A DNA stretch of 14,120 bases from an uncultured Trueperaceae bacterium (GTDB lineage: Bacteria > Deinococcota > Deinococci > Deinococcales > Trueperaceae): the NCBI GenBank assembly GCA_937911855.1, contig CALDPK010000038.1, positions 1 to 14,120 of the forward strand, read 5' to 3'. A model generated the notes under the pieces. The model was not told where the DNA came from. It saw only the letters and a list, made by a program, of their open reading frames with translations, and did no database searches. This document shows, piece after piece, positions 1 to 14,120 of this stretch. Each line of letters starts with the position of its first letter. Within the stretch, counting starts at the first letter, position 1. The position numbers and the translations under genes are program-made.

Positions 1-1050
1 TGCCTCCCGCAGTTCCAGTTCGACCTTGGCGCCGGCTTCGACTTCCACCAGGTGGAAGTTCGCTCCCGCGGCCTTCAGCCTGATCAAGGGGGCTCCCCCG
101 GCACTCTTGAGCCCGGTGACGGTCACGTTGCTTGCGATGGTGAGCGTTGAACCCACCTCGATGACGTGCGGCCCTGACCCTGGGAACGATTGACCCCTGA
201 AAACGATTCTTTGGATCGCCGGGTCGAGGGCGGCTTCATTCAGCCTGTTGCGCAGACTGCCGGGTATGGCTTCATCATCGCTGCTGTTGGTCACCAGGCT
301 GAACGTCCCGATGAGTTCCCCGTAAATCAACTGATGCGTGACGGTGGCGCCGGCTGCGACCGTCACGACGGCCTCGGGCGGAGCCGTGAAGTAACGGTCA
401 TCCGGAGAAAGGAAATCGTGGCCGGAGATCAGGTAGTCTCCGGGGTGCAGGTCCTCGAGTTCGATTGAACCGAACACTTCTGTGCTGAACGCGTCCGGAC
501 CGGTCACCAGGACGCCAGGAGTTACTGCCGCTGGCAGGCCCGTGATGTTTATCTTCAGGTTGCCCCGGGTTGGGAGAGCTGGTGGGTCCTCGTCCTCGTT
601 GTCGTCACCATCGTCAGGATCATCATCCCCGCTGCCGTCATCCCCGTCGCCAGGGTCAGTTGCCTCGGGAGCGTACGTGACCGTGACGGTCGCATCCTTG
701 CCGGCGTGGATGGTCACGGAGGCATGGCTGAGCGTGCCAACGTACTGGCTGCCTTCATGCGTGACAGCCGAGGCTGACAGGACGTAATCGCCTGCCTTGA
801 GTTCGTGCTTGCCCGGAACCGCCAGGACGCGGCTGAAGTCAGCAGCTCCCGCTACCTGAACCGTCGCGGTGGCACCGGCAGGCAGGTTCTCCGCTTCCAG
901 TACCAGGTTTCCGGTGGTCACCGCCGCTGGTTTTCCGGTGCAGGCCGCCAACAATAGAGCGAAGAGCGAAAACACGACTAGGAGCTTTTGCAGCCTGCCC
1001 GTTTTGAAAACATTGCCGCAAATGCGGTGGTAAAAACCAGAAGTATTCAT
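1..1050 (-). CDS. Secreted lipoprotein, partial (C-terminus lies beyond the window start). It has a signal peptide with a LAAC lipobox, then two tandem Ig-like beta-sandwich repeats, an Asp/Gly-rich acidic linker and a beta-helix-like C-terminal region.
   Basis: My own translation of the minus strand from the ATG at 1048-1050 gives 350 codons with no stop in 65% GC DNA. The N-terminus is MNTSGFYHRICGNVFKTGRLQKLLVVFSLFALLLAACTGK, i.e. a positively charged n-region, a hydrophobic core and an L-A-A-C lipobox. Two repeats are similar in sequence: GNLVLEAENLPAGATATVQVAG...GDYVLSA...VTIHAGKDATVTVTY and GNLKINITGLPAAVTPGVLVTG...GDYLISG...VVTVAAGATVTHQLIYG. The linker is DPGDGDDGSGDDDPDDGDDNEDEDPP. 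The provided ORF track misses this frame because the ORF has no stop inside the window. The overlapping plus-strand ORFs 190..468 and 482..787 are low-complexity antisense artefacts. Confidence 0.7.
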   Translation of the reverse strand, partial: MNTSGFYHRICGNVFKTGRLQKLLVVFSLFALLLAACTGKPAAVTTGNLVLEAENLPAGATATVQVAGAADFSRVLAVPGKHELKAGDYVLSASAVTHEGSQYVGTLSHASVTIHAGKDATVTVTYAPEATDPGDGDDGSGDDDPDDGDDNEDEDPPALPTRGNLKINITGLPAAVTPGVLVTGPDAFSTEVFGSIELEDLHPGDYLISGHDFLSPDDRYFTAPPEAVVTVAAGATVTHQLIYGELIGTFSLVTNSSDDEAIPGSLRNRLNEAALDPAIQRIVFRGQSFPGSGPHVIEVGSTLTIASNVTVTGLKSAGGAPLIRLKAAGANFHLVEVEAGAKVELELREA

Positions 1051-1202
1051 TTTTAGTGAGTAGTGTCCTTTCAGCACTGAGAAGGACTGTACCCACCGGC
1101 CGTCAAAATGGCGTCAAAACCCGCCAGGAACGGTGCGGGCGCTGACACTGCACAGGCTCGGCCCGCGATCTGTCAGGGTGCAGGACCAGGAAAGACGCTG
1201 CG

Positions 1203-2310
1203 TCAGCTGTCGCGGTCCGGCTCTATACGTTTGCCGCGGTTCCTGAACTGTTGCCTGAATTCCTCCGCCAGTTGCTGGGCGTCGGGCTGGGCGGTGCCGT
1301 AACGTTCTATCGACACGCGCAGTGCCTTGATGTACGAGTTGCCCAGGGCGGCCGTCAGGGCGGAGGCGGTACCGGCTGCGATGACGCCACCGGCCACGGA
1401 ACCGAGTCCGGGTACGAACTTCAGCAGGGCAGAGGCCACCGTCCGGGTCGCGTAGCCGGTACCGGCGATGCCCAGCGCGCTTGACAGCACCGTCTGCAGG
1501 TACGTCTGTGAGAACGACAGCCCGAAAGTCGCGTTGATGCCGGCCAGCATGCCCAGCTGGATGGGCGCAAGGGTCCACAGGTTGGAGAGCGGCATGGGCA
1601 CCGCTGCCGCTGCGCCCGCACTGGCTGTTGCAGTACTGACCACGGCCCTGGCGCGGCGCACCTTCATGTCCAGGGAGACCTTCTGGGCTGCAGCCAGCGC
1701 GTTGCGGCTGGCCTCGGGGATGAGCTCCATCGTCGCCTCAAGCAGCTCGAGGAGTCCGAACGGCTGCAGGACGTGCCCGTCATCGAGCTCTTCGGTCAGG
1801 GCGCGGACGCGGTGCACTCCCCAGGCGTGCGGGATCAGTTCGCGGACCACGTCGCTGAAACCCTGATCAGAACGGGCCTTGGTTATGACGACCAGGACGG
1901 GCACGCCGCTGGCGTGCAGCAGCCGGGCCAGTTCGATCTCGGCTTCCTGCACGCGGCGGCCGTCCTCGCTGATGCACAGCCAGCAGGCATGGATGTGCTG
2001 GCGCTCGTCGCTGCTGCGCCGCTTCTTGATGAGCGCGTGCAGTTCCTGGATCGTCTCCTGGTAGCGGGCTGTTTCCAGGCCGCGGGTGTCGAACAGGGTG
2101 AGCGGGAAGCCGGGCCGCGAGTACTCGCGCGTACCGAGGGTGACGGGCCGGCCCTGCCCCGTCTCAGCCAGGTTCTCGCTGAACACGGCGTTGACCAGCG
2201 TGCTCTTGCCCACACCGGTAATCCCGGCCATGAGCAGGTTGAACTGGCCACGCAGTTCGTTCGCCTGCTTCACGCTGTCATTCACGAGTCTGCCTAAGTC
2301 CATGGCCATG
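1203..2310 (-). CDS. GTP-binding protein (Era/HSR1-like G domain) fused to a C-terminal DUF697-like glycine-rich hydrophobic domain.
   Basis: P-loop G1 is GITGVGKST, G3 is DTRG, and a degenerate G4 is VVITKAR. The C-terminal 150 aa are Gly/Ala/Thr-rich and hydrophobic (GMLAGINATFGLSF...GIAGTGYATRT...GLGSVAGGVIAAGTASALTAALG), which is typical of DUF697, a domain known to pair with GTPase domains. The maximal ORF reaches 2402 (MNHLIV...). However, the first ~30 codons there have AT-rich third positions, unlike the gene body, so I place the start at the ATG at 2310 (MAMDLGRL...). No SD is evident at either start. Confidence 0.75.
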
Positions 2311-2436
2311 TTGGGGCAGGATAACCAGCAGGCGGCCAGGGCGGCGTCGTCCGAAAGTAGCAGGACCGCCGCCTGCGAGTGCAATACAATCAAATGATTC
2401 ACGGCACAAGTAAACCTGTGGTCCTGAAATCACCCC

Positions 2437-2441
2437 GGAGG
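2437..2441 (+). promoter_or_regulatory. Shine-Dalgarno site (GGAGG) 7 nt upstream of the TTG start of the band-7 gene.
   Basis: The sequence ccccGGAGGtattggtTTGaaactt is seen directly. Confidence 0.6.
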
Positions 2442-2448
2442 TATTGGT

Positions 2449-3312
2449 TTGAAACTTTACAGATCCCTCGCCGTCGTCGTGGCCCTTGCCCTGCTGGCAA
2501 TCTTCATCGTGTTCGGCAGCATGTTCACAATCGATCAGGGCACCCGCGGAGTGGTGCTGCGCATGGGCGCAGTCGCCGGCATCGCCGAGCCCGGGCTGGG
2601 CTTCAAGATCCCCTTCATCGACCGCGTCGTGCCCATCAACGTGCAGACCAACTCGGTCGTCTACCCGGACATGGAAGCGTACAGCCGCGACCAGCAGCTC
2701 GCCGAGATCGACGTTTCGGTCACCTACCGCATCCTGCCCGGCGAAGTCGATGAGGTTTACGCGCAGTACGGCAGCGAAGAAGGCATGGTCACCCGGCTGA
2801 TCGACAGGCGCGTCAACGAGCTGGCCAAGACGGTGTTCGGCCAGTTCAACGCCGGCGAAGCGATCCAGGAACGCGGCCGCCTCAACCAGGATGTTTCGCA
2901 GGCCATCACATCAGCACTGACCGGACCACTCATCGTTGAGTCCGTGCAGGTTGAATCGGTAGCCTTCAGCGAAGTCTACGAACAGTCGATCGAAGCCCGC
3001 ATGCTGGCTGAAGTCGAAGTGCAGAAGCGCACGCAGGAACTCGACCAGCAGCGCGTGCAGGCGCAGATAACCGTGACGCAGGCCCAGGCTGAAGCTGACG
3101 CGCGCGTCGCCGCAGCCGAAGCCAACGCCCAGGCGGTGCGCATGGCCGGTGAAGCCGAGGCAGAAGCCATCCGCGCCAAGGGCGAGGCCCTGCGCGACAA
3201 CCCCGAGCTCGTGCGGCTCATCACCGCAGAAGCCTGGGACGGCCAGCTGCCCGTGACGATGGTTCCGGGTTCGGCCCTGCCGTTCATCGAGCTGGGTGCA
3301 GTAGCGCCTTAA
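2449..3312 (+). CDS. SPFH/band-7 family membrane protein (prohibitin/HflC-like).
   Basis: A TTG start follows a GGAGG SD. There is an N-terminal transmembrane helix LAVVVALALLAIFIVFGSMF, then an SPFH-like core (IDQGTRGVVLRMGAV...GFKIPFIDRV...), then a long Ala/Glu/Gln-rich coiled-coil tail (EVEVQKRTQELDQQRVQAQITVTQAQAEADARVAAAEANAQ), which is typical of HflK/C and prohibitins. Confidence 0.85.
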   Translation: MKLYRSLAVVVALALLAIFIVFGSMFTIDQGTRGVVLRMGAVAGIAEPGLGFKIPFIDRVVPINVQTNSVVYPDMEAYSRDQQLAEIDVSVTYRILPGEVDEVYAQYGSEEGMVTRLIDRRVNELAKTVFGQFNAGEAIQERGRLNQDVSQAITSALTGPLIVESVQVESVAFSEVYEQSIEARMLAEVEVQKRTQELDQQRVQAQITVTQAQAEADARVAAAEANAQAVRMAGEAEAEAIRAKGEALRDNPELVRLITAEAWDGQLPVTMVPGSALPFIELGAVAP

Positions 3313-3315
3313 CGC

Positions 3316-4041
3316 TCAGTCGATCTGAAGTTCTTCGGCGATGCGGGCACTTCCCAGCTGGGCGGCCCGCATCACCCATATCGACACCTCGTAGAGGATT
3401 ATCAGCGGGAGTGCGACCAGGGCCAGGTTGACCGGGTCGACGGTCGGCGTGATGGCAGCTGCCAGGACGACCGCGCCCAGGATCGAATGCCTGCGGTATT
3501 TGGCCAGGGTCTGCCACTGCAGCACGTTGAGTTTGCCCAGCAGGAACGCCAGTACCGGCATCTCGAAGATCAGGCCGAACACCGCCATGAACATGAGCAT
3601 CGTCGAGATGAAACTCTGCGTTGAGAGCAGCATCGTGGCCTCGTCGCCAAGGAAGCCCGTGATGATCGGCAGTGAGAACGGCAGCGCCACATAGCGGGCG
3701 AACAGCACGCCCAGGATGAACGCCGAGGCCGTCAGCAGGATGAACGGAATCGCCCACCTGCGTTCGCTGGGGTACAGGCCGGGGGCGACGAAGCCCCACA
3801 CCTGACCGCCGATCACGGGTGCGGCCAGAACCACGCCGAAGAACGCAGAGATGTAGATGCTCACCGTCAGCGGTTCCATCACGTGGAAGGTGTGCAGGGT
3901 CAGGCCGGCCGGCAGTGGCTCCTTGAGCCAGTCCAGCAGCCAGAAACGCATGCTGAACATGACGCTGGCCCCGACGATCCACGCGCCCAGGGCGATGAAG
4001 ATGCGCGTGCGCAGTTCAGCAAGATGCTCAAGAAGCGTCAC
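3316..4041 (-). CDS. tatC: Sec-independent (twin-arginine) protein translocase subunit TatC.
   Basis: The conserved N-terminal motif LEHLAELRTR is present, followed by six predicted transmembrane segments over about 240 aa. The start is a GTG at 4039-4041, 20 nt downstream of the tatA stop. Confidence 0.9.
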   Translation of the reverse strand: MTLLEHLAELRTRIFIALGAWIVGASVMFSMRFWLLDWLKEPLPAGLTLHTFHVMEPLTVSIYISAFFGVVLAAPVIGGQVWGFVAPGLYPSERRWAIPFILLTASAFILGVLFARYVALPFSLPIITGFLGDEATMLLSTQSFISTMLMFMAVFGLIFEMPVLAFLLGKLNVLQWQTLAKYRRHSILGAVVLAAAITPTVDPVNLALVALPLIILYEVSIWVMRAAQLGSARIAEELQID

Positions 4042-4061
4042 TGGTCAGCGGTGCATTTTGG

Positions 4062-4274
4062 TCAGGCCTGGTCTTTGTTCGAGTTCGAGGACTGGCTCGG
4101 CTGGCTGTCCGAACTCTCGAGGTCGCTCTGGACCTCCCTGACGCCCTTGCGGAACTCCTTGATTGCCTGGCCCATGCCTTTTGCCATCTCCGGCAGGCGG
4201 CGTGCGCCAAAGAGAAGCAGCACGATCACAAGTATGATCAGCAGCTCCCACATTCCGAACGGTCCGATTCTCAT
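4062..4274 (-). CDS. tatA: Twin-arginine translocase subunit TatA/E.
   Basis: The protein is MRIGPFGMWELLIILVIVLLLFGARRLPEMAKGMGQAIKEFRKG..., i.e. one transmembrane helix plus an amphipathic helix, followed by an acidic/Ser-rich tail. A GGAGG SD lies 7 nt upstream of the ATG on the minus strand (plus-strand 4282-4286). It sits directly upstream of tatC. Confidence 0.85.
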   Translation of the reverse strand: MRIGPFGMWELLIILVIVLLLFGARRLPEMAKGMGQAIKEFRKGVREVQSDLESSDSQPSQSSNSNKDQA

Positions 4275-4430
4275 TCAACTGCCTCCAGACAGGCACAGGG
4301 TGATTGGTGATTCCCGGTTGCGGTCATTCTAGCGCGTTAAGGACTCGCACAACGTACGCGCGCCAGCAGAACGTCCGGACAATGCGCGAAAGCATACCGA
4401 GTCACTCATGGGACTGTTCTACCCTGACAT

Positions 4431-5255
4431 ATGGAACGAACCGTAAAGCTTCTGAGCGGCCCCGAAATGCCCCGCATCGGCCTCGGCACCTCACCCATGG
4501 ACGACACTGTCACCGAGAACATCGTCACCGAAGCGCTGCAGGTCGGCTACCGCTCCGTTGACACGGCCGAGAACTACCGCAACGAAGCCGGGGTCGGCCG
4601 CGGCATCCGGGCCAGCGGCGTGGACCGCGAGGAGATCTTCGTCACCAGCAAGTTCAACGCCGAGTGGCACGGCGAGGACCTTGTCGCCAAGGCCGCGCAC
4701 CGCAGCCTCGAGCTGATGGGGCTGGATTACCTCGACCTGTACCTGATCCACTGGCCCAACCCTGACCAGGACCGCTTCGTTGACGCCTGGCGCGGCCTGA
4801 TCAGGCTGCGCGAGGAAGGCCTCGTGCGGGCCATCGGCGTGTCGAACTTCAAGGTCAGCCACCTGCGGCGCATCATCGACGAAACAGGCGTCACCCCCGA
4901 CGTGAACCAGATCGAGCTGAACCCGTACACCCAGCGCCCCGACCAGACGGCGTTCGGCGCCGACAACCGGATCGTGCAGACCGCCTGGTCACCGCTGGGC
5001 CGCAAGACCGAACTGCTGGACGAGCGCGTTATCACCCAGGTGGCCCGCGAAGTCGGCCGCACGCCTGCTCAGGTCGTGCTTCGCTGGCACCTGCAGAAGA
5101 ATCATGTGGCGATCCCGAAGACCAGCAATCCGCAGCGCTTGACTGAGAACTTAGACGTGTTCGGATTCGAGCTGACCGGCGAGCAGATGGCGCAGATCGA
5201 CGGGTTGGATAACGGCGGCGAAGGTGCCGCTGACTCGGACACGTTCGGCCACTGA
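4431..5255 (+). CDS. Aldo-keto reductase (2,5-diketo-D-gluconate reductase/DkgA-like).
   Basis: The N-terminus LLSGPEMPRIGLGT matches the AKR N-terminal pattern. Further AKR motifs seen are GYRSVDTAENYRNE, LDYLDLYLIHWP and AIGVSNF, and the length is 274 aa. Confidence 0.9.
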   Translation: MERTVKLLSGPEMPRIGLGTSPMDDTVTENIVTEALQVGYRSVDTAENYRNEAGVGRGIRASGVDREEIFVTSKFNAEWHGEDLVAKAAHRSLELMGLDYLDLYLIHWPNPDQDRFVDAWRGLIRLREEGLVRAIGVSNFKVSHLRRIIDETGVTPDVNQIELNPYTQRPDQTAFGADNRIVQTAWSPLGRKTELLDERVITQVAREVGRTPAQVVLRWHLQKNHVAIPKTSNPQRLTENLDVFGFELTGEQMAQIDGLDNGGEGAADSDTFGH

Positions 5256-5261
5256 GGGAAT

Positions 5262-5855
5262 TCAGAACAGGGTCGTGATGCCGTTGACGACCATCTGGAC
5301 GGCCAGCATGATCAGCACCATGCCCATCAGCCGCTCGATGGCGGTGAGGCCGCGGACCCGCAACACCCGCAGCAGCAGCGGCGACGCCATCATGACGACC
5401 GCAGTCGCGAGCCAGGCGATCAGCAGCGCCAGCAGCCATTTGCCCATCGCAGTCGGGTCGCTCTTGGCCATGATGATGACCATCGCCATGGCCGAAGGCC
5501 CGGCGATCAGCGGGATGGCGAGCGGGACTATGAACGGTTCGCCGTCCAGCTGGGCGCCCATCACGCCGTCCTTGCGCGGGAAGATCATGCGCAGGCCGAT
5601 GACGCCCAGCACGATGCCGCCGGCTATTGCAACGGATTCCTGCTGCAGGCCCATGAAGCGCAGGATGATCTCACCGAAGAACAGGAAGAAAACCAGAACG
5701 CCCAAGGCGATGAGCAGTTCGCGCATCAGCACCTTGCGGCGCCGGGACTTCTCGACGTCCTTCAGGAGGGAGATCGCCAGCGGTGCGTTACCGAAGGGAT
5801 CCATTACGAAAAACAGCAGTACTGCTGCTGACAATACGCCGGTAGTGGCATCCAC
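5262..5855 (-). CDS. MarC-family (UPF0056) integral membrane protein.
   Basis: It is 197 aa and polytopic, with LLFFVMDPFGNAPLAISLL at the same N-terminal position as the LLPLANP motif of E. coli MarC. It uses a GTG start at 5853-5855. Confidence 0.8.
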   Translation of the reverse strand: MDATTGVLSAAVLLFFVMDPFGNAPLAISLLKDVEKSRRRKVLMRELLIALGVLVFFLFFGEIILRFMGLQQESVAIAGGIVLGVIGLRMIFPRKDGVMGAQLDGEPFIVPLAIPLIAGPSAMAMVIIMAKSDPTAMGKWLLALLIAWLATAVVMMASPLLLRVLRVRGLTAIERLMGMVLIMLAVQMVVNGITTLF

Positions 5856-5927
5856 GCAGCCAGTTTAACGCCAGCAGCAGTTTCGGCTGTTCGTTACTGT
5901 TCCAGTGCGTTGCCTTTGGGGGCGGCC

Positions 5928-5965
5928 GTTCCTGACTGCGCGCCAGCTGGCACTCAGTCAGGAAC
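5928..5965. repeat. Perfect 11-bp inverted repeat (GTTCCTGACTG/CAGTCAGGAAC) around a 16-nt spacer that itself holds a 10-bp palindrome (GCCAGCTGGC). It overlaps the stop codon of the lipid-kinase gene.
   Basis: Verified by hand: 5928-5938 is the reverse complement of 5955-5965, and 5942-5951 is self-complementary. It would form a strong hairpin on the minus-strand transcript at the lipid-kinase 3' end, upstream of the MarC gene. No U-tract follows. Confidence 0.6.
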
Positions 5966-6874
5966 CTGGTACCTGGCTGAGGCTATGAACTTCAGTGCGG
6001 CCGGCACCATCTTCAGTTTGACTGGGGTCTCACCGACCACGTCACCGTCGATGTGCACGAGCATGGGTGGCCTGGCTTCGATCTCGAGTTCGCGGATGTC
6101 CTCCAGCTCAGGTTTCCCGCCCGGCCCGGCCACGATTCGCAGCACCTGCCCTACGACGCCAAGCAGCCCCGGAGAACTCATCACCGACAGTTCGGCATAA
6201 CCGTCGTGCGGATGGGCGTCGGGTCCCACCTTCGCGCCCAGGAGCTCAAGCCGGGTGGCGTTGAACACGCTGATGGTGTGGGCCTGCACCAGGCGTTCCT
6301 GCCCGTCCACGACCAGCCGTACCGAGTGGTTGCGCCGGTTCCGCATGTTGGTGAACGTGGCGTTCACGTAAGCCATGAAACCCAGGCGGGACTTCTCTTC
6401 CGAGTCGGCGTCCCGGTTGATCTCCGCGTCGAGTCCCGCACCGAGGAACAGCAGGCTGGTGGCGTCGTGCGAGTGGACGTCAAGTGCGTCAAGGTCCACG
6501 AGTTTACCCGTCGACAGGGTCTTCACTGCAGCCAGTGGGTCCATCGGCAGCCCCAGCACCCGTGCCAGGCCGTTGCCGGTGCCCAGCGGGATGATGCCCA
6601 CGGCCGGCCGTTTCTCCTGCTTTGACTTCAGGATGCCGTGAGCCACGCCCGTAACGGAACCGTCGCCACCCGCGGCGATCACCACATCGAAGCCTTCCTC
6701 GGCCGCTTCGGAAGCCCAGGTCCACGCGTCATCGGGCCCGCTGGTCTTGCGCAGATCCAGCTCGGCCGGGCCAGATGAGCTGATGGCTCTGCTTATGCGC
6801 TCAGCGTACTCCTGGCCGCGTTCAGTGCCGCTATTGGGATTCAGGATCACCCTGATCCGCCTGCCTGTGAACAT
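5954..6874 (-). CDS. Diacylglycerol-kinase catalytic-domain lipid kinase (YegS/BmrU-like).
   Basis: N-terminus RIRVILNPNSGT, an AAGGDGS nucleotide-binding motif, and GIIPLGTGNGLAR; 306 aa. Confidence 0.85.
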   Translation of the reverse strand: MFTGRRIRVILNPNSGTERGQEYAERISRAISSSGPAELDLRKTSGPDDAWTWASEAAEEGFDVVIAAGGDGSVTGVAHGILKSKQEKRPAVGIIPLGTGNGLARVLGLPMDPLAAVKTLSTGKLVDLDALDVHSHDATSLLFLGAGLDAEINRDADSEEKSRLGFMAYVNATFTNMRNRRNHSVRLVVDGQERLVQAHTISVFNATRLELLGAKVGPDAHPHDGYAELSVMSSPGLLGVVGQVLRIVAGPGGKPELEDIRELEIEARPPMLVHIDGDVVGETPVKLKMVPAALKFIASARYQVPD

Positions 6875-6909
6875 GGCGCATGATACCGCGCCCGCTCACG
6901 TGCAAACCG

Positions 6910-8136
6910 TCAGGCGACGGTTGCTGCAGGGCGTACTGCCTGCCGGAATGCCAGGAGCGACAGGCCCACCAGCAACACCATGCCCAGCGCCAGCGGTTGC
7001 GGTCCGCCGGTGGCGAAGAAGGCTATCACCGAACCGACGAGCGTGCCGATGCTCAGCTGGGTGAATCCGCTGATGCCCGAGACCATCCCGGCCCGCTCGA
7101 AATGGGGTTCAAGCACCAGGGTCATGGTATTCGCCAGCGTCATGGAAAAGCCAGCGAAGAAAGCCGACATGTTCGCGGCAAAAGACCAGATGCTGTCGAT
7201 GCCGAGCGTGACCTGAACTGCCAGCACAACGCAGGCCAGCAGCCAGAGCGGCAGCACCACCCGCAGTATCTGGGCCGCGCTGAAGCTGTTCAGCAGCCGG
7301 GCGTTCAGCGGCTGGGTGATGAACGAGACCGAAGCGATCGCGGCGAACACAAGGCCGAACTGCGCTTCAGACAGCGCGTAATGATCGATGAAGATGGCCG
7401 GAGCTGAGGCCAGGTAGGCCATCAGCGGCGTGTAGGCCAGGGTAAGCACGACTATCGCCCAGGCGGACTGACGTTCGCGGAAGATCGACTTCACGTTGGC
7501 GACGAGACCGGCAATGCTGAGCGCGGTGAGGTCGCGCCGCGGCAGCGTTTCCGGGAGCAGCCGCAATACGAGTACCAGCATGAACGCGGCTATCGCCAGC
7601 AGGAACACGAACTGCAGGTGCCAGTCGCCGACGCTCAGCAGCAGCACACCGATGCTGGGCGCCAGCAGGGGAGCGGCGGTGAAGAAGATCATGGCGAACG
7701 ACATCATGCGGCCCAGTTGCCGTCCGGAGTACAGGTCGCGCAGTACCGCCCGGGCCAGGACCGGACCTGTGGCGCAGCCAAGGCCCTGGACGAACCGGCC
7801 GATGAGCAGGGTGTTGAAATCGTTCGTGAACAGGCAGATTATGCTGCCTATGGCGTAAATGACCATACCGGTCAGCAGAACCGGCCTGCGTCCGAACCGG
7901 TCGGCCGTCGAGCCGACGAGCAGGTGCGGCAGCGCGTAGCCCAGCATGAACACGCTCAGCACCCGCTGGATGGCTGCGTCGCTCACTCCCAGTTCCGCTG
8001 CCATCGTCGGGAAGGCGGGCAGCATGACGTCGGTAGCCAGGGCGGCCATGGTCATGAGCGAGCCGACTATGAACAGCAGGGTCAGGGTCGACGGGCGGGT
8101 TCGCAGCGGAGTAGCGGTCGAGGCGTGGGTGGTCAT
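6910..8136 (-). CDS. MFS transporter (Bcr/CflA drug-efflux-like).
   Basis: About 12 predicted transmembrane segments, an MFS signature TADRFGRRPVLL after TM2, and 408 aa. The overlapping plus-strand ORF 7618..8757 is Arg/Gly/His-rich antisense junk. Confidence 0.85.
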   Translation of the reverse strand: MTTHASTATPLRTRPSTLTLLFIVGSLMTMAALATDVMLPAFPTMAAELGVSDAAIQRVLSVFMLGYALPHLLVGSTADRFGRRPVLLTGMVIYAIGSIICLFTNDFNTLLIGRFVQGLGCATGPVLARAVLRDLYSGRQLGRMMSFAMIFFTAAPLLAPSIGVLLLSVGDWHLQFVFLLAIAAFMLVLVLRLLPETLPRRDLTALSIAGLVANVKSIFRERQSAWAIVVLTLAYTPLMAYLASAPAIFIDHYALSEAQFGLVFAAIASVSFITQPLNARLLNSFSAAQILRVVLPLWLLACVVLAVQVTLGIDSIWSFAANMSAFFAGFSMTLANTMTLVLEPHFERAGMVSGISGFTQLSIGTLVGSVIAFFATGGPQPLALGMVLLVGLSLLAFRQAVRPAATVA

Positions 8137-8345
8137 CGCCGGCTGAACATATCACCTGAACGGCGATTCCTCGGACGCCGCCGGTACCCGCAGTTGCGGC
8201 AGCCTGTGTACCGGTCCGGTAAACACCTGCCTGCCCATATCAGGACCTTCGCCCTGCCTGGTGGGTATATTGTGCAGCAATCAACCTGGGAAGAAGAACG
8301 AACGGGCAATACGTCCCAGGTGGTTATAGATCAACGGAGGTTTAC
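8137..8345. promoter_or_regulatory. A 209-bp divergent intergenic region between the MFS transporter (minus strand) and the ABC substrate-binding protein (plus strand). It presumably holds both promoters and a long 5' leader for the substrate-binding protein gene; a GGAGG SD lies at 8336-8340.
   Basis: Both flanking genes start at its edges. The SD is read directly as caacGGAGGtttacATG. I could not assign convincing -35/-10 hexamers by eye. Confidence 0.4.
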
Positions 8346-9845
8346 ATGCGTAATCTGCTCACACCAGTCGTCGCTCTTTCGCTCCTGGCCGGTGCGGCCA
8401 TGGCGCAGGAAGCGGCGCCTCAGCGTGGCGGCGAGATCGTCGTCGCCATCACGGCGGCCCCGCCCGGTTGGGACCCGTCCGTCAGTACCTCGCAGGAAAT
8501 TCCACGCGTCGTTTACGGAAACGTCTACGAAGGCCTCGTCATATTCGACCGCACCGGTGCGATCGTGCCTGCACTCGCGACCGACTGGAGCATCTCGGAC
8601 GACCTGCTCGAATGGACCTTCACCATCCGTGAAGGCGTCAAGTTCCACGACGGCTCCGACCTCCAGCTCTCCGACATCGTCGCCCGCTTCGAACGCGCCC
8701 GCGACCCCGAGTCCGGCCACACCAACAACGCGTTCTACGCCGGCATCACGGGCGTGAGCGCCGACGAAGAAGCACACACCGTGACCTTCACCCTCGCCGA
8801 ACCGCGCGCCAGCCTGCTGTTCGACCTGGCCCGTCCCGACTCGGTCATCTACCCCGAAGCACTCACCGACAGCCAGGTTTCCCAGCCCGTCGGCACCGGA
8901 CCGTTCGCCTTCGCCAACTACATCGAAGGCGCCGAAGTGACCCTCGAGCGCTTCGAAGATTACTGGAACCCCGAGCTGCCCTACCTCGACCGGGCAGTCT
9001 TCCGCATCATGAGCGACCCGAACAGCCGCTTCGCTGCACTCCAGTCCGGCGACATCGACCTCATCGGCGTCGCGCTGCAGCCCGAGCAGTTCATCCAGCT
9101 GCAGAGCAACCCTGACCTGCAGGGCACCGAAGGCACCATGACCACCGAGATCACGATGGCCATGAACAACGCCATCGAACCCTTCAACGACATCCGCGTC
9201 CGCCAGGCGATCACCCACGCGATCGACAAGCAGGCCATCGTCGACGGCGCCTTCTTCGGACTGGGCACGGTCATCGGCAGCCACATGAGCCCCGCCGAGC
9301 CGTACTACATCGACCTGAGCGAGACCTACCCGTACGATCCCGAGCGCGCCCGTGAACTGCTGGCCGAGGCCGGCTACGCCGACGGCCTGACCGTCAAGTT
9401 CGAACTGCCTGAGCCGTACAACACCGAGCGCCGCACCGGTGAAGTCATCGCACAGCAGCTCGCCCAGGTCGGCATCACCGCCGAACTCAGCGTGGTCGAG
9501 TGGACCACCTGGATCAACCGCATCCTGCTGGGCGGCGATTACGAGATGACGATCATCGGTCACTCCGAACCGCGCGACATCTTCGTGTACGCCAACCCCG
9601 AGTACTACTACCACTACGACAACCCGCGCATCGCCGAGCTCTTGGCAGAAGCCGAGACTGCCTCATCAGATGCCGAGTCGAACGAGTACTTCCAGGAGAT
9701 CGCCACCATAATCGCCGAAGACGCAGTGAACGTCTGGGTCTTCAGCTCGCCCTACCTGGTCGCTGCCCGCGCCGACATCGCAGGCTTCTGGACCGATCAG
9801 CCCACGCCGTCCATCAATGTGACGGAGGTCTACAGGACCGAGTGA
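8346..9845 (+). CDS. ABC transporter substrate-binding protein, family 5 (oligopeptide/dipeptide/nickel type).
   Basis: It has a signal peptide (MRNLLTPVVALSLLAGAAMAQEA), is 499 aa, and shows DppA/OppA/NikA-like sequence features throughout. A GGAGG SD lies 5 nt upstream. Confidence 0.9.
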   Translation: MRNLLTPVVALSLLAGAAMAQEAAPQRGGEIVVAITAAPPGWDPSVSTSQEIPRVVYGNVYEGLVIFDRTGAIVPALATDWSISDDLLEWTFTIREGVKFHDGSDLQLSDIVARFERARDPESGHTNNAFYAGITGVSADEEAHTVTFTLAEPRASLLFDLARPDSVIYPEALTDSQVSQPVGTGPFAFANYIEGAEVTLERFEDYWNPELPYLDRAVFRIMSDPNSRFAALQSGDIDLIGVALQPEQFIQLQSNPDLQGTEGTMTTEITMAMNNAIEPFNDIRVRQAITHAIDKQAIVDGAFFGLGTVIGSHMSPAEPYYIDLSETYPYDPERARELLAEAGYADGLTVKFELPEPYNTERRTGEVIAQQLAQVGITAELSVVEWTTWINRILLGGDYEMTIIGHSEPRDIFVYANPEYYYHYDNPRIAELLAEAETASSDAESNEYFQEIATIIAEDAVNVWVFSSPYLVAARADIAGFWTDQPTPSINVTEVYRTE

Positions 9846-9849
9846 GCAG

Positions 9850-10794
9850 ATGTTTGCTTACGTAGTCAGAAGAACGTTCACCGCGCTGGTCAGCCTTGTG
9901 CTGGCCAGCGTTCTGGTGTTCGCGGCCCTGCTCGCCATCCCCGGCGATCCGGCCGAGGTGCTCCTGGGCATGGACGCCAACCCCGTCACCCGGGAAGCGG
10001 TGCGCAGGCAGCTCGGCCTGGACGTGCCGCCCCTGCAGCGCTTCGGCAACTGGATCGGTGGCGCCGCGACCGGTGATCTGGGCGAAAGCCTTGCGTACCG
10101 CCGGCCCGTCGGTGACCTGATCGGCGAGCGGCTGTCCGTGTCCGTGCCACTGTCCGTAGCTGCCGCCATCCTGGCGGTCATCATCGCGCTGCCGCTGGGC
10201 ATCGCAGCCGCCCTCACGCGCAAGACCTTATTTGACCCCCTTATCACTGCCGTAGCCCAGGTGGGCGCGGCCGTACCGTCGTTCTGGCTTGGTCTTTTAC
10301 TGATTATCTGGCTTGCTGTCCAGCAGGGAATCTTCCCGGCCGGCGGGTTCGTGCCCTGGGAACGTGAAGTGTGGGGTGCGATCCGCAGCCTGACCCTGCC
10401 GGTCATCGCCCTGGCGCTCGGCCAGGCGGCCGTCATGACCCGCATGACCCGCGCCGTCATGATCGAGAACATGGGCGCAGATTACGTGCGAACTGCCCGC
10501 GCCAAGGGGCTTGCGCCCAGCCGGGTGGTGTTGCGGCACGCGCTGCGTAACGCACTCGTCACCCTGGTGACCGTGTTCGGCCTGGCGCTAAGCAACGTGT
10601 TCATCGGTTCCATCGTCATCGAGCAGGTGTTCAGCCTGCCGGGCCTCGGCCGCATGGCACTGTCCGCGATCGGTAACCGCGACTTCCCGCTGGTTCAGGG
10701 CGTCGTGCTCGTCTACGCCGCCGCGATCATCATGCTTTCGTTCATCGTCGACATAAGCTACGGCTTCCTGGACCCAAGGATCCGCTACAACTGA
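9850..10794 (+). CDS. ABC transporter permease (DppB/OppB-like).
   Basis: The N-terminus is MFAYVVRRTFTALVSLVLASVLVF, and the EAA-like permease loop RTARAKGL is present; 314 aa. It starts 4 nt after the substrate-binding protein stop. Confidence 0.9.
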   Translation: MFAYVVRRTFTALVSLVLASVLVFAALLAIPGDPAEVLLGMDANPVTREAVRRQLGLDVPPLQRFGNWIGGAATGDLGESLAYRRPVGDLIGERLSVSVPLSVAAAILAVIIALPLGIAAALTRKTLFDPLITAVAQVGAAVPSFWLGLLLIIWLAVQQGIFPAGGFVPWEREVWGAIRSLTLPVIALALGQAAVMTRMTRAVMIENMGADYVRTARAKGLAPSRVVLRHALRNALVTLVTVFGLALSNVFIGSIVIEQVFSLPGLGRMALSAIGNRDFPLVQGVVLVYAAAIIMLSFIVDISYGFLDPRIRYN

Positions 10795-11600
10795 TGGGCA
10801 AGAGGTTCAACATCATCATCGGCGGGTTCCTGACTGGCCTCGTGCTGCTCGCGGCCATCGTGTCGCTGTTCTGGCAGCCGCACGACCCGAACGCCATGGA
10901 CTTCTCCGCGCAGCTGTCCGGACCCACCGCGAACAACTGGCTGGGCGCCGACCATTACGGCCGCGACCTGTTCTCGCGCCTGCTCATCGGCGCGCGCGGC
11001 ACCATGTACGTCGGTTTCATCTCAGTGGGTATTGCGCTCACGATAGGCGGCCTGCTTGGCGCCTTCGCGGGTTACGTCGGCGGGTTGATCGGCGAGGGCA
11101 TCATGCGCGTCGTCGACGTGCTCTACGCGTTCCCGGCCATCCTGATGGCGCTGCTGCTGGCGGCAATCTACGAACCCGGCACAGTAACGGCGATGGTGGC
11201 CATCGGCATCGCGACGATCCCGATATTCGCGCGGCTCATGCGCTCTTCGGTGATCAGCCTGCGTGAACTGGAGTTCGTGGAGGCCGGCCGGGCGCTGGGT
11301 GCAGGTCACGGCCGGCTGCTGTGGCGGCACGTGGTGCCCGGTGCGATGTCACCGATAATCGTGCAGGTCAGCCTGAGCCTTTCGGTGGCCGTCCTGGCCG
11401 AGGCGGCACTCAGTTTCCTGGGCCTGGGCACGCCCCCGCAGACGCCAAGCTGGGGCAGCATGCTGCGTGAATCGCAGAGCTTCCTGCAGATGAGCGCTTA
11501 CCCCGCACTCGTGCCGGGCATAGCCATCATGGTGACCGTGCTGGGCTTCAGCCTGCTCGGCGACGGGCTGCGCGACCTGGCTGACAAGCGGAACGACTGA
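10794..11600 (+). CDS. ABC transporter permease (DppC/OppC-like).
   Basis: 268 aa and polytopic. The permease signature region reads EAGRALGAGHGRLLWRHVVP. Its start overlaps the upstream stop (TGATG). Confidence 0.9.
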   Translation: MGKRFNIIIGGFLTGLVLLAAIVSLFWQPHDPNAMDFSAQLSGPTANNWLGADHYGRDLFSRLLIGARGTMYVGFISVGIALTIGGLLGAFAGYVGGLIGEGIMRVVDVLYAFPAILMALLLAAIYEPGTVTAMVAIGIATIPIFARLMRSSVISLRELEFVEAGRALGAGHGRLLWRHVVPGAMSPIIVQVSLSLSVAVLAEAALSFLGLGTPPQTPSWGSMLRESQSFLQMSAYPALVPGIAIMVTVLGFSLLGDGLRDLADKRND

Positions 11601-11721
11601 CACATCCGGGCTTTTTCGCCCTTCACTCTGGGCAATCATCCTGCCGGTACGCGGTTAGCGTCCCGGCAGTCTTCATTCCCGCCTGCTCGTGCGGCTATAC
11701 CGGAGGCAGGAGGTGGTGAGG

Positions 11722-11949
11722 ATGCAATTCGACGTGAGCCAGATGGATCCGCCGCACCGGCCGGACTCGCGAGGGACTGCCGAAGACCGGCTGCGGGTGC
11801 TGGAGCTGGAGCAGACCAGGCTGCTGGCCCGGCACGAGGCTGTGGTGGCGCAGCTCAGCAGCATGCGGAGCGCCATGCGCGGGCTTGAACGCCTGCTGGA
11901 ACTCAGACTGCAGCGGCTTGAGCAGCTGGGGCGCAGGCGCTTTCCTTAA
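11722..11949 (+). CDS. Small hypothetical Arg-rich coiled-coil protein (75 aa).
   Basis: A strong SD AGGAGGTGGTGAGG lies 8 nt upstream of the ATG. GC3-rich codon usage matches the neighbouring genes. Leucine heptads run through LRVLELEQTRLLARHEAVVAQLSSMRSAMRGLERLLELRLQRLEQL. The track ORF 11689..11949 is the same frame with a less likely upstream start. I recognise no homology. Confidence 0.4.
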   Translation: MQFDVSQMDPPHRPDSRGTAEDRLRVLELEQTRLLARHEAVVAQLSSMRSAMRGLERLLELRLQRLEQLGRRRFP

Positions 11950-12019
11950 CCGGGCCGGGGTGTTTACTGGACACATGATCAAGATTGACAACCATTAGGG
12001 CCAGTGAAACGATCGGTGG

Positions 12020-12991
12020 ATGGATACGATGGATCTGATGCACGGAGCGCGGCGGCTCGTCGGTCACTGTACTGACGTGCAGCCGGGTGAACAGGCGCTC
12101 GTGGTTATCGACCGCCTGACTGACCCCGCGCTCGGGGAAGCCCTCTACGCCGCGCTGCGCGAAGCCGGCGCTGACGCGTTCGTGTTGACCTGCGATGAGG
12201 CAAGGACCGATTCGGGTGAACCGTCTCCCGCTGTGGCTGCCGCCATGCTCGCCAGCGACGTGATCTTCACGGCGGTGCAGGTTTCGATCACCCACACCGA
12301 TGCAGTCAACGCGGTGTGCGCCCGCGGCGGCCGGGTTGCAGCCCTCACCCAGTGGGTGCCGGAGATGATGGCGGGCGGCGGCATCGACGCCGACTTCCGT
12401 GCCATCGAGCCGAAAGTCATGCGCATGGCGAAGATCTGGGACCAGGGCAGCACCGTGCGGGTAACCACTAAACTGGGCACCGACATGACCCTCGACATCC
12501 GGGGCCGCCAGGGCAGCCCGCACGCCAAGACGGGAGTCGTGAGGAGCGGCACGTTCCATCCGATTCCTGACATCGAGTCGCCCGTCTCGCCCGTGACGGG
12601 CCACGGAACCATAGTCTGCGACGCCAGCATTCCCTACCTGGGCATCGGCGTCCTGAACGAACCCGTGACGCTGAAAGTCGTGGACGGGCGCGTCACCAGT
12701 ATCGAGGGCGGCGAGGCCGCTGACATAGTCCGCGCAGCCTGGAAGTCGCTGGAAGACCCGAATGTCTACAACCTGGCGGAACTCGGCATCGGCATGAACC
12801 CCGAATGCGAACTGACCGGCCGGATGCTTGACGACGAAGGCGTCGACAGCACCTGCCATTTCGGGATCGGAACCAGCAACACGCTTGGCGGTAACGTCAA
12901 GGCAAAGTGCCATTACGACTTCGTGGTGCAGGATCCGACCATCGAGGTTGACGGCCGGATCGTCATGAAAGACGGCGTACTCGACGTCTAG
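12020..12991 (+). CDS. Aminopeptidase-like metalloenzyme of the M29 (AmpS/aminopeptidase T) / NicX fold.
   Basis: 323 aa. The C-terminal region ELGIGMNP...CHFGIGTSNTLGGNVKAKCHYDFVV carries a His...His-x-Asp pattern like the metal site of M29 peptidases and 2,5-dihydroxypyridine dioxygenase (NicX). The start may be the ATG at 12029 instead, where a GGTGGA SD has better spacing. Confidence 0.65.
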   Translation: MDTMDLMHGARRLVGHCTDVQPGEQALVVIDRLTDPALGEALYAALREAGADAFVLTCDEARTDSGEPSPAVAAAMLASDVIFTAVQVSITHTDAVNAVCARGGRVAALTQWVPEMMAGGGIDADFRAIEPKVMRMAKIWDQGSTVRVTTKLGTDMTLDIRGRQGSPHAKTGVVRSGTFHPIPDIESPVSPVTGHGTIVCDASIPYLGIGVLNEPVTLKVVDGRVTSIEGGEAADIVRAAWKSLEDPNVYNLAELGIGMNPECELTGRMLDDEGVDSTCHFGIGTSNTLGGNVKAKCHYDFVVQDPTIEVDGRIVMKDGVLDV

Positions 12992-13386
12992 GAAGGTACG
13001 TAACGGGCCCGCGGCCGGATGACCCGGTCGGAAGCGTACTGCTCGAAGACGTGAGCCAGCATGCCCGCCATCCGGCCCAGGCCGATCAGGCTGTAGATGC
13101 TCCCTGCCGGCAGGGCCAGCAGCGGTTCGGCGCAGGCCAAGGCGAAGTCGACACGGGCGTGCTCGCCCGTCGCGGCTTCGGCCAGCCTGACGGTGTCCTG
13201 TAACAGTGCGTAATGTTCCGAGTCCACATGCAGCTCCAGCAGGGCGGACACGCGCGGGTCACGCCCGTCGTACAGCCGCCGGTACGGGTTGTGGAAACCG
13301 GGCACCGCGCCGTAGTTGCGCAGGTCGCTGCGCACGGCCATCACGATCGGGTTGACCCCCAGCGGCACCATCGCCGCCGTCGAGAT
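12988..13386 (-). pseudogene. Citrate-synthase family gene fragment, C-terminal ~130 aa only. The N-terminal ~2/3 is absent at the junction with pntB.
   Basis: PGFHNPYRRLYDGRDPRV aligns to the GFGHRVYKNYDPRA active-site region, and VDFALACAEPLLALP...RVIRPRARYV aligns to the VDFYSGIILKAMGIP...KIARPRQLYTG C-terminus of citrate synthases. The reading frame opens only at a stop at 13387-13389. No upstream exon or continuation exists because the opposite strand there is pntB. Confidence 0.6.
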
Positions 13387-14120
13387 CTACGTCGATGTCG
13401 CCATCGGCGCCATCACCTTCACCGGCTCGATCGTCGCCTTCGCCAAGCTGCAGGGGCTGGTCAGCGGCAGGCCGGTGGTCTTTCCGATGCAGCACTGGTT
13501 GAACCTCGCGCTGGGGATCCTGGCGGTCATCCTGGTCATCTGGATGGTGGCCGGTCAGTCGGGAACGGCCTTCTGGCTGCTCGTGCTGCTGACGCTGGTG
13601 CTGGGCGTGCTGATCATCATTCCGATCGGCGGCGCCGACATGCCGGTCGTCATCTCGTTCCTGAACTCCGCGTCGGGTCTGGCTGCCTCGGCGGCGGGTT
13701 TCGTGATCGAGTCCAACGCTCTGATCATCTCCGGTGCCCTGGTAGGTGCCGCCGGCCTGATCCTCACGAACATCATGGTCAAGGCGATGAACCGCACCCT
13801 GGGCGACGTCCTGTTCGGCGCCTTCGGGGGCGGCAGCGTTGCGGTCGACGCGGCCGACCCGGACAGGAGCGCCACCCGGGCGACTCCCGAGGACGTCGCC
13901 ATCGCCCTCGGATATGCCCGTTCCGTGATCGTCATCCCCGGATACGGCCTCGCCGTAGCCCAGGCTCAGCACGCGTTGAGGGAACTGGAGCAGGCGCTCG
14001 AGGCCCGCAACGTGGACGTCCGCTACGCCATCCATCCGGTCGCCGGCCGGATGCCGGGGCACATGAACGTGCTCCTCGCCGAGGCCGACGTCGAGTACGA
14101 CGCGATGAAGGAGATGGACG
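13340..14120 (+). pseudogene. pntB: NAD(P) transhydrogenase beta subunit (PntB), 5'-truncated, lacking the first ~150 aa and transmembrane helices. It continues past the window end.
   Basis: My translation (AIGAITFTGSIVAFAKL...IIIPIGGADMPVVISFLNSASGLAA...GALVGAAGLILTNIMVKAMNR...VIVIPGYGLAVAQAQHA...YAIHPVAGRMPGHMNVLLAEA) is collinear with E. coli PntB from about residue 155 onward. An in-frame stop sits at 13313-13315, and there is no plausible start or N-terminal membrane domain upstream. Confidence 0.75.

Follow-up and report, generated by a model that had tools for sequence, protein, structure and literature searches.

Head-to-head citrate-synthase-like and pntB fragments in a Trueperaceae contig: a probable metagenomic chimera

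Genes and features around the junction

We analysed a stretch of 14,120 nt from an uncultured Trueperaceae bacterium (contig CALDPK010000038.1, positions 1 to 14,120), hereafter called the window. Bases 1-13302 carry the ordinary genes of a high-GC bacterium, which encode a GTPase, an SPFH protein, TatC, an aldo-keto reductase, MarC, a DAG-kinase-like protein, an MFS transporter, a peptide ABC transporter, and a NicX-like protein. The peptide ABC transporter cluster (8346-11600) comprises SBP_bac_5 and two permeases with no ATPase genes after them. No ORF other than one of 86 aa, which has a weak coiled-coil match, lies in the interval that follows (11600-12020), and the near-identical Logan contig L001, described below, starts within this interval at window position 11862. 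In our own Pfam scan, the NicX-like gene product gave a sub-threshold M29 peptidase match and nothing else. The NicX-like gene and the citrate-synthase-like (CS-like) gene are convergent in the window, and their stop codons overlap as CTAG. The coordinates of the features at and around the junction are collected in Table 1.

The initial annotation had described, at 13300-13400, a junction of two genes without their 5' ends, one citrate-synthase-like on the minus strand and the other pntB on the plus strand. Both fragments are present, and so are the two stop codons that it had listed, namely a TAG at 13387-13389 (CTA on the plus strand), which closes the minus frame, and a TAG at 13313-13315 on the plus strand. 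The minus-strand ORF 12988..13371 encodes 127 aa and matches the Pfam Citrate_synt profile (PF00285) over positions 248-357 of 357 (E 1.7e-11; 44.2 bits versus a cut-off of 27), which places it among the members of this fold domain. The plus frame is open after its TAG and runs off the end of the window. Its match to the Pfam PNTB profile (PF02233) covers positions 116-368 of 456 (E 3.7e-103) and scores 346 bits versus a cut-off of 31.7, identifying it as PntB. This fragment aligns to residues 120-373 of E. coli PntB (9l76_C); the 5' third and the start codon are absent, and it begins in the middle of the transmembrane domain.

The breakpoint coordinates needed revision, being 30-80 bases off. 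The citrate-synthase homology had been extended to ~13386; we found that the authentic part ends at 13302, where the 99.9% identity to the intact homologue stops, and that the family signal beyond this point is weak and reaches ~13341. The PntB homology had been placed from ~13340-13370 onwards, beginning at the equivalent of E. coli residue ~150. We found that the alignment starts at residue 120 in E. coli and 123 in T. thermophilus, and that the similarity becomes convincing no earlier than about 13380-13400.

That the two fragments are bona fide short genes with starts of their own, one for a C-terminal citrate-synthase domain protein of 127 aa and the other for a PntB with a shortened N-terminus, has next to no probability, and this reading is effectively refuted already. 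An ATG at 13371 does open the 127-aa ORF, but the first 22 residues of its product are not family sequence, and nearly all of the 120 closest homologues have 387-436 aa (the two exceptions have 331 and 352 aa). The plus frame has no start codon in a PntB context, entering the family at E. coli residue 120, and neither short product is on record anywhere.

The third-codon positions of the minus citrate-synthase frame and the plus pntB frame coincide (coordinates congruent to 1 mod 3). Because of this coincidence, both frames are open across the junction (13316-13386), and a long antisense ORF lies opposite pntB. Open frames in coincident phase are a typical artefact of high-GC DNA, and the antisense ORF, whose phase shares its third-codon positions with pntB, had rightly been called an artefact. 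All joins keep the reading frame and the third-codon phase; this is to be expected of homologous crossovers, but at the strand switch it would happen by chance in only one case out of three, a point against the chimera reading given below. The GC and GC3 values differ little (0.79-0.87 in host genes versus 0.89-0.96 in the tail) and are not decisive.

Table 1. Features at and around the junction (positions in the window)
Feature	Coordinates	Strand	Basis
NicX-like gene, intact, 323 aa	12020..12991	+	PF26233 NicX (precomputed) on the identical product in L001
CS-like gene, genuine 3' end (aa 288-391 of 391)	12988..13302	-	99.9% nucleotide identity to L001/L033 and L034
Antisense ORF, spurious, 267 aa	13259..14062	-	Opposite pntB; the plus frame has a 346-bit PNTB match
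Segment X1	13303..13362	-	Minus-sense codon signal; no match to the intact homologue; weakly citrate-synthase-family-like to ~13341
Segment X2, peptide GTIAAVEIYVDV	13364..13399	+	Plus-sense codon signal; weakly PntB-like
pntB segment B, 464-aa alphaproteobacterial type (Aquibaculum/Kiloniellales-like)	13400..13625	+	92-94% aa identity to P0004-P0008 and P0011
Crossover zone inside the PIGGADMPVVIS motif	13626..13656	+	31 nt, ~97% identical to both parental types
pntB segment C, 456-aa type	13657..14120	+	92% aa identity to P0001/P0002; 88% nucleotide identity to L002/L003

The intact citrate-synthase-like gene and its neighbour

The NicX-like protein was found unchanged on the Logan contig SRR8272547_48767 (L001), on which it is accompanied by an intact gene, convergent with the NicX-like gene and with overlapping stop codons, whose 391-aa product has an HTH at its N-terminus in addition to a citrate-synthase domain. 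Over window positions 11862-13306, L001 is 99.93% identical to the window at the nucleotide level, with one mismatch (13303), and beyond this interval the two sequences are unrelated. Taken together, L001/L033 (run SRR8272547) and L034 (run SRR8272546) are 99.91-99.93% identical to window positions 11862/12194..13306. L034 encodes the identical 391-aa protein (P0241) and departs from the window at the same place. The identity to both Logan contigs falls abruptly to the random level at 13303-13306. Thus, the true continuation of the left part exists in independent, near-identical DNA (L001 and L034), and the identity of the window to it breaks off abruptly, as is characteristic of a chimera. 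The contigs found to carry the 5' half of the CS-like gene have it joined to its own 3' half only, and the intact 391-aa protein is on record in two samples of a 153-billion-gene index. Four further proteins or ORF variants of the window gave no exact-product match.

In every relative locus that was long enough, a full-length CS-like gene lies next to a NicX-like gene, in convergent or divergent orientation. The full-length gene stands beside the NicX-like gene in L001, L005, L006, L008-L013, L016-L018, L021, and L022; L007 and L014 reach the end of their contigs too early to show the pairing. The NicX-like proteins of the relatives are 66-85% identical in the JGI and ENA contigs and 66-74% identical in Deinococcota/Trueperaceae and other MAGs, and the closest named relatives of the left part are Deinococcota/Trueperaceae MAGs. 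When JGI metagenome contigs and GTDB genomes were scanned, only relatives of at most 85% aa identity came up, and the junction was not among the matches. As a side observation, a NicX-like gene (PF26233) and an HTH-fused CS-like gene of ~390-410 aa form a conserved pair in Deinococcota-like and other MAGs (window 12020-13302; L001, L005, L006, L008-L013, and L016-L022). The pair is convergent with a CTAG stop overlap in the window, L001, L005, and L012, and in most others it is divergent, with ~90-110 nt between the genes.

We also compared the CS-like protein with the curated NCBIfam/TIGRFAM families, applying the cut-offs for citrate synthases, 2-methylcitrate synthase, and citryl-CoA lyases. 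An identity as gltA, the citrate synthase of the TCA cycle, was rejected, as the intact protein (P0241/L001) tops out at 115 bits versus a cut-off of 421 (TIGR01800). All 22 of its family matches are far under the curated cut-offs (193-594), and the fragment in the window reaches 40 bits against the curated citrate-synthase families. At the N-terminus, the full-length relatives also have an HTH (PF12728/MerR), a feature that GltA typically lacks. As judged from its sequence, the CS-like gene is a distant HTH-fused paralogue and not the TCA enzyme.

These comparisons bear on the possibility of a real, strain-specific rearrangement, in which an inversion or a foreign insertion broke the CS-like gene and a pntB pseudogene fragment came to lie alongside. 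We consider this distinctly unlikely. The junction is indeed present in the sequence, with both frames closed by stop codons nearby, and L001 and L034, with their intact gene, belong to other assemblies and would be compatible with a variant strain. The closest named relatives also belong to Deinococcota, a phylum that includes naturally transformable members. Against this reading, the identity to the intact version is 99.9% right up to the break, and none of the relative loci has pntB near the NicX-like/CS-like pair. The junction ORF occurs in no second assembly, and a junction-spanning ORF with either start codon is absent from the 153-billion-gene index. The flanks of the junction showed none of the hallmarks of recombination, such as IS ends or long inverted repeats, and the junction itself had no repeats or mobile-element ends.

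Composition of the tail

The stretch 13303-13399 separates the authentic CS-like sequence from convincing pntB sequence. It has a strong third-codon GC periodicity (0.96), and a codon-usage likelihood scan located a switch from minus-strand to plus-strand coding at ~13362 (minimum at 13361), which divides it into the segments X1 and X2. Over 13303-13379, the nucleotide identity to L001 or to any pntB was no better than random. The identity to B-type genes was 0.26-0.31 over 13341-13379 and 0.50-0.70 over 13380-13399. When 13297-13410 was compared with the window and with all loci by short-word BLAST, the matches were confined to GC-rich sequence and attributable to chance. The best short match pairs 13360-13380 with 5212-5232 in the AKR/MarC region (21 nt, one mismatch, opposite strands). 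Its E value is 0.002 in BLAST-short with a small search space, and it is probably due to chance.

In X1, positions 13300-13337 are ~71% identical at the nucleotide level to the CS-like gene of a Deinococcota MAG (L016). The X1 peptide, AVRSDLRNYGAV, matches several conserved columns of the family, with three near-invariant columns broken, and the alignment to the citrate-synthase family HMM reaches 'MAVRSDL'; the X segment alone gave no significant match to the family HMM. X1 may derive from another homologue of the CS-like gene, entered beside the conserved PGFHNPYRR-coding stretch. This idea draws on ~38 nt at 71% identity (L016) and on matches to conserved columns, and is suggestive. X2 takes part in the PntB HMM alignment with low posterior probability, and a motif search with its peptide in 240 PntB sequences found at most 6/26 identities and no shared 4- or 5-mers.

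The pntB fragment itself proved to be a mosaic. Over 13397-13654, it is 92-94% identical at the aa level to the 464-aa PntB proteins of Aquibaculum sediminis, a Kiloniellales MAG, and metagenome contigs, and over 13655-14119 the same proteins are only 56-59% identical. The reverse holds for the 456-aa proteins P0001/P0002, with 92% aa identity in the second half and 49-50% in the first. The nucleotide comparisons gave the same picture. Segment B is 84-88% identical to L004, L035, and L036 versus 32% to L003, and positions 13657-14101 are 88% identical to L003, with 0.66 of sites matching between segment C and L004 in a fixed ungapped register over 13657-13800. Across 116 full-length PntB relatives, the identities to the N-part and the C-part are correlated at -0.88. 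A maximum-chi-square scan of 263 informative sites placed the breakpoint at 13631-13645, with a ratio of sites that changes from 93:10 to its left to 29:131 to its right (Fisher P = 4e-33). These results are at odds with a single colinear pntB of one lineage that is complete from its start codon.

The best single protein over the whole pntB fragment is 73-75% identical among 5.8 billion clusters, whereas a two-parent model with the crossover in the shared stretch reaches ~93%, which is the mark of a two-parent mosaic. Chimeras of PCR products or amplicons are detected by two-parent tests of this kind (UCHIME-type criterion). The pntB of the window resembles them in its far better two-parent fit and in a crossover within a conserved stretch. 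Unlike them, the window has a shotgun-type genomic context, extra pieces, and a strand switch.

The closest sequences to segment C are the Logan contigs L002/L003, and the named members of the 456-aa type are Acidimicrobiia MAGs. The segment extends to PNTB profile position 368 (of 456), at which point the window ends. The idea that segment C is a pntB of the host itself found no support, as the PntB of T. thermophilus (Deinococcota) is no closer to it than that of E. coli. No parents of segments X, B, and C were found in the databases at more than ~90% nucleotide identity. The protein search with the 113-aa N-part of pntB as a query returned only targets of less than ~200 aa and missed known full-length relatives at 93-94% identity; short queries thus appear to be biased to short targets in this search.

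The source lineages therefore differ along the window by sequence affinity: the left part is of Deinococcota/Trueperaceae type, segment B of Aquibaculum/Kiloniellales type, and segment C of a type named from Acidimicrobiia. A rearrangement within a strain is further opposed by a pntB side that is a two-phylum mosaic and that follows ~97 bases matching neither gene properly. As the right side is a mosaic of two lineages, an inversion within one genome cannot yield it. An inversion also requires a single genome as the source of both flanks, and here a left flank closest to Deinococcota MAGs meets a right flank of alphaproteobacterial and Acidimicrobiia-named types. As at a true inversion breakpoint, two 5'-truncated genes diverge from one point in the window. 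In a true inversion, both sides belong to one genome and each is a colinear copy of a single gene, whereas the right side of the window is a multi-lineage mosaic and its left gene is intact in 99.9%-identical DNA. The initial annotation had offered an inversion or a chimeric join as the origin of the junction. The intact left gene and the two-lineage right side argue against the former and favour the latter.

Origin of the tail and its consequences

On the comparisons above, the tail 13303-14120 is most likely a chimera of several sources that arose by metagenome mis-assembly, and it would not belong to the source organism of bases 1-13302. The tail (817 bases, ~820) would be composed of no fewer than three or four short pieces that stem from different organisms and follow one another in the order X1 (maybe another CS-like homologue), X2 (~36 bases), B (~250 bases), and C (at least 465 bases). 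Under this model, the assembler would have passed between genomes at short identical stretches in conserved motifs, for which PGFHNPYRR (left join) and PIGGADMPVVIS (pntB crossover) are the candidate sites. Chimeric metagenome contigs arise from k-mers shared between genomes (PMC7299287). We infer that the tail is an artefact, that the assembler rather than library molecules made the joins, and that the end of the window is the end of the contig.

Like the inter-genomic chimeric contigs of short-read metagenomes (PMC7299287), the window abruptly loses identity to its true continuation, switches template in highly conserved coding motifs, and is composed, near the sequence end, of segments that differ in phylogenetic affinity. 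Unlike the usual chimeric contigs, it has a join at ~13340-13380 between non-homologous genes of opposite strands, where no shared motif is visible, and three or four switches in less than 1 kb are unusually many. No recognisable shared motif was found at this strand-switch join, a point against a simple shared-k-mer cause there.

An artefact made outside the assembler is unlikely. In this case, amplification or ligation chimeras in the library would have extended a low-coverage contig end, or the sequences would have been spliced computationally. With ~60, 36, and 250 bases, the pieces are about as long as single reads, and the strand-switch join, being without an obvious shared motif, is compatible with such an origin. 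However, the B-to-C crossover falls exactly in the shared 31-nt conserved stretch, and the left break lies directly beside the PGFHNPYRR-coding stretch, which is the pattern expected of graph-based mis-joins. It is highly unlikely that a Deinococcota-like strain took up DNA carrying a ready-recombinant pntB, which then entered the HTH-citrate-synthase-like gene by illegitimate recombination. If true, the junction would be a snapshot of cross-phylum DNA acquisition leaving mosaic pseudogene debris.

Under the preferred explanation, a chimeric tail from mis-assembly, the junction does not imply that any gene is broken in a living cell. The earlier statement that two central-metabolism genes are disrupted here is not supported, as the left gene is not gltA and the right piece is no coherent natural pntB. 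Read at face value, the window would indicate the loss of a citrate synthase and a transhydrogenase, or an inversion, in an uncultured lineage, and the evidence indicates neither. Most likely, the junction is not a real biological feature, and its chief value is one of caution: flagging the last ~820 bases guards against mistakes in metabolic inference and taxonomic binning and keeps false 'hybrid PntB' entries out of protein databases. The sole biologically interesting by-product is the pairing of the NicX-like gene with the HTH-fused citrate-synthase-like gene.
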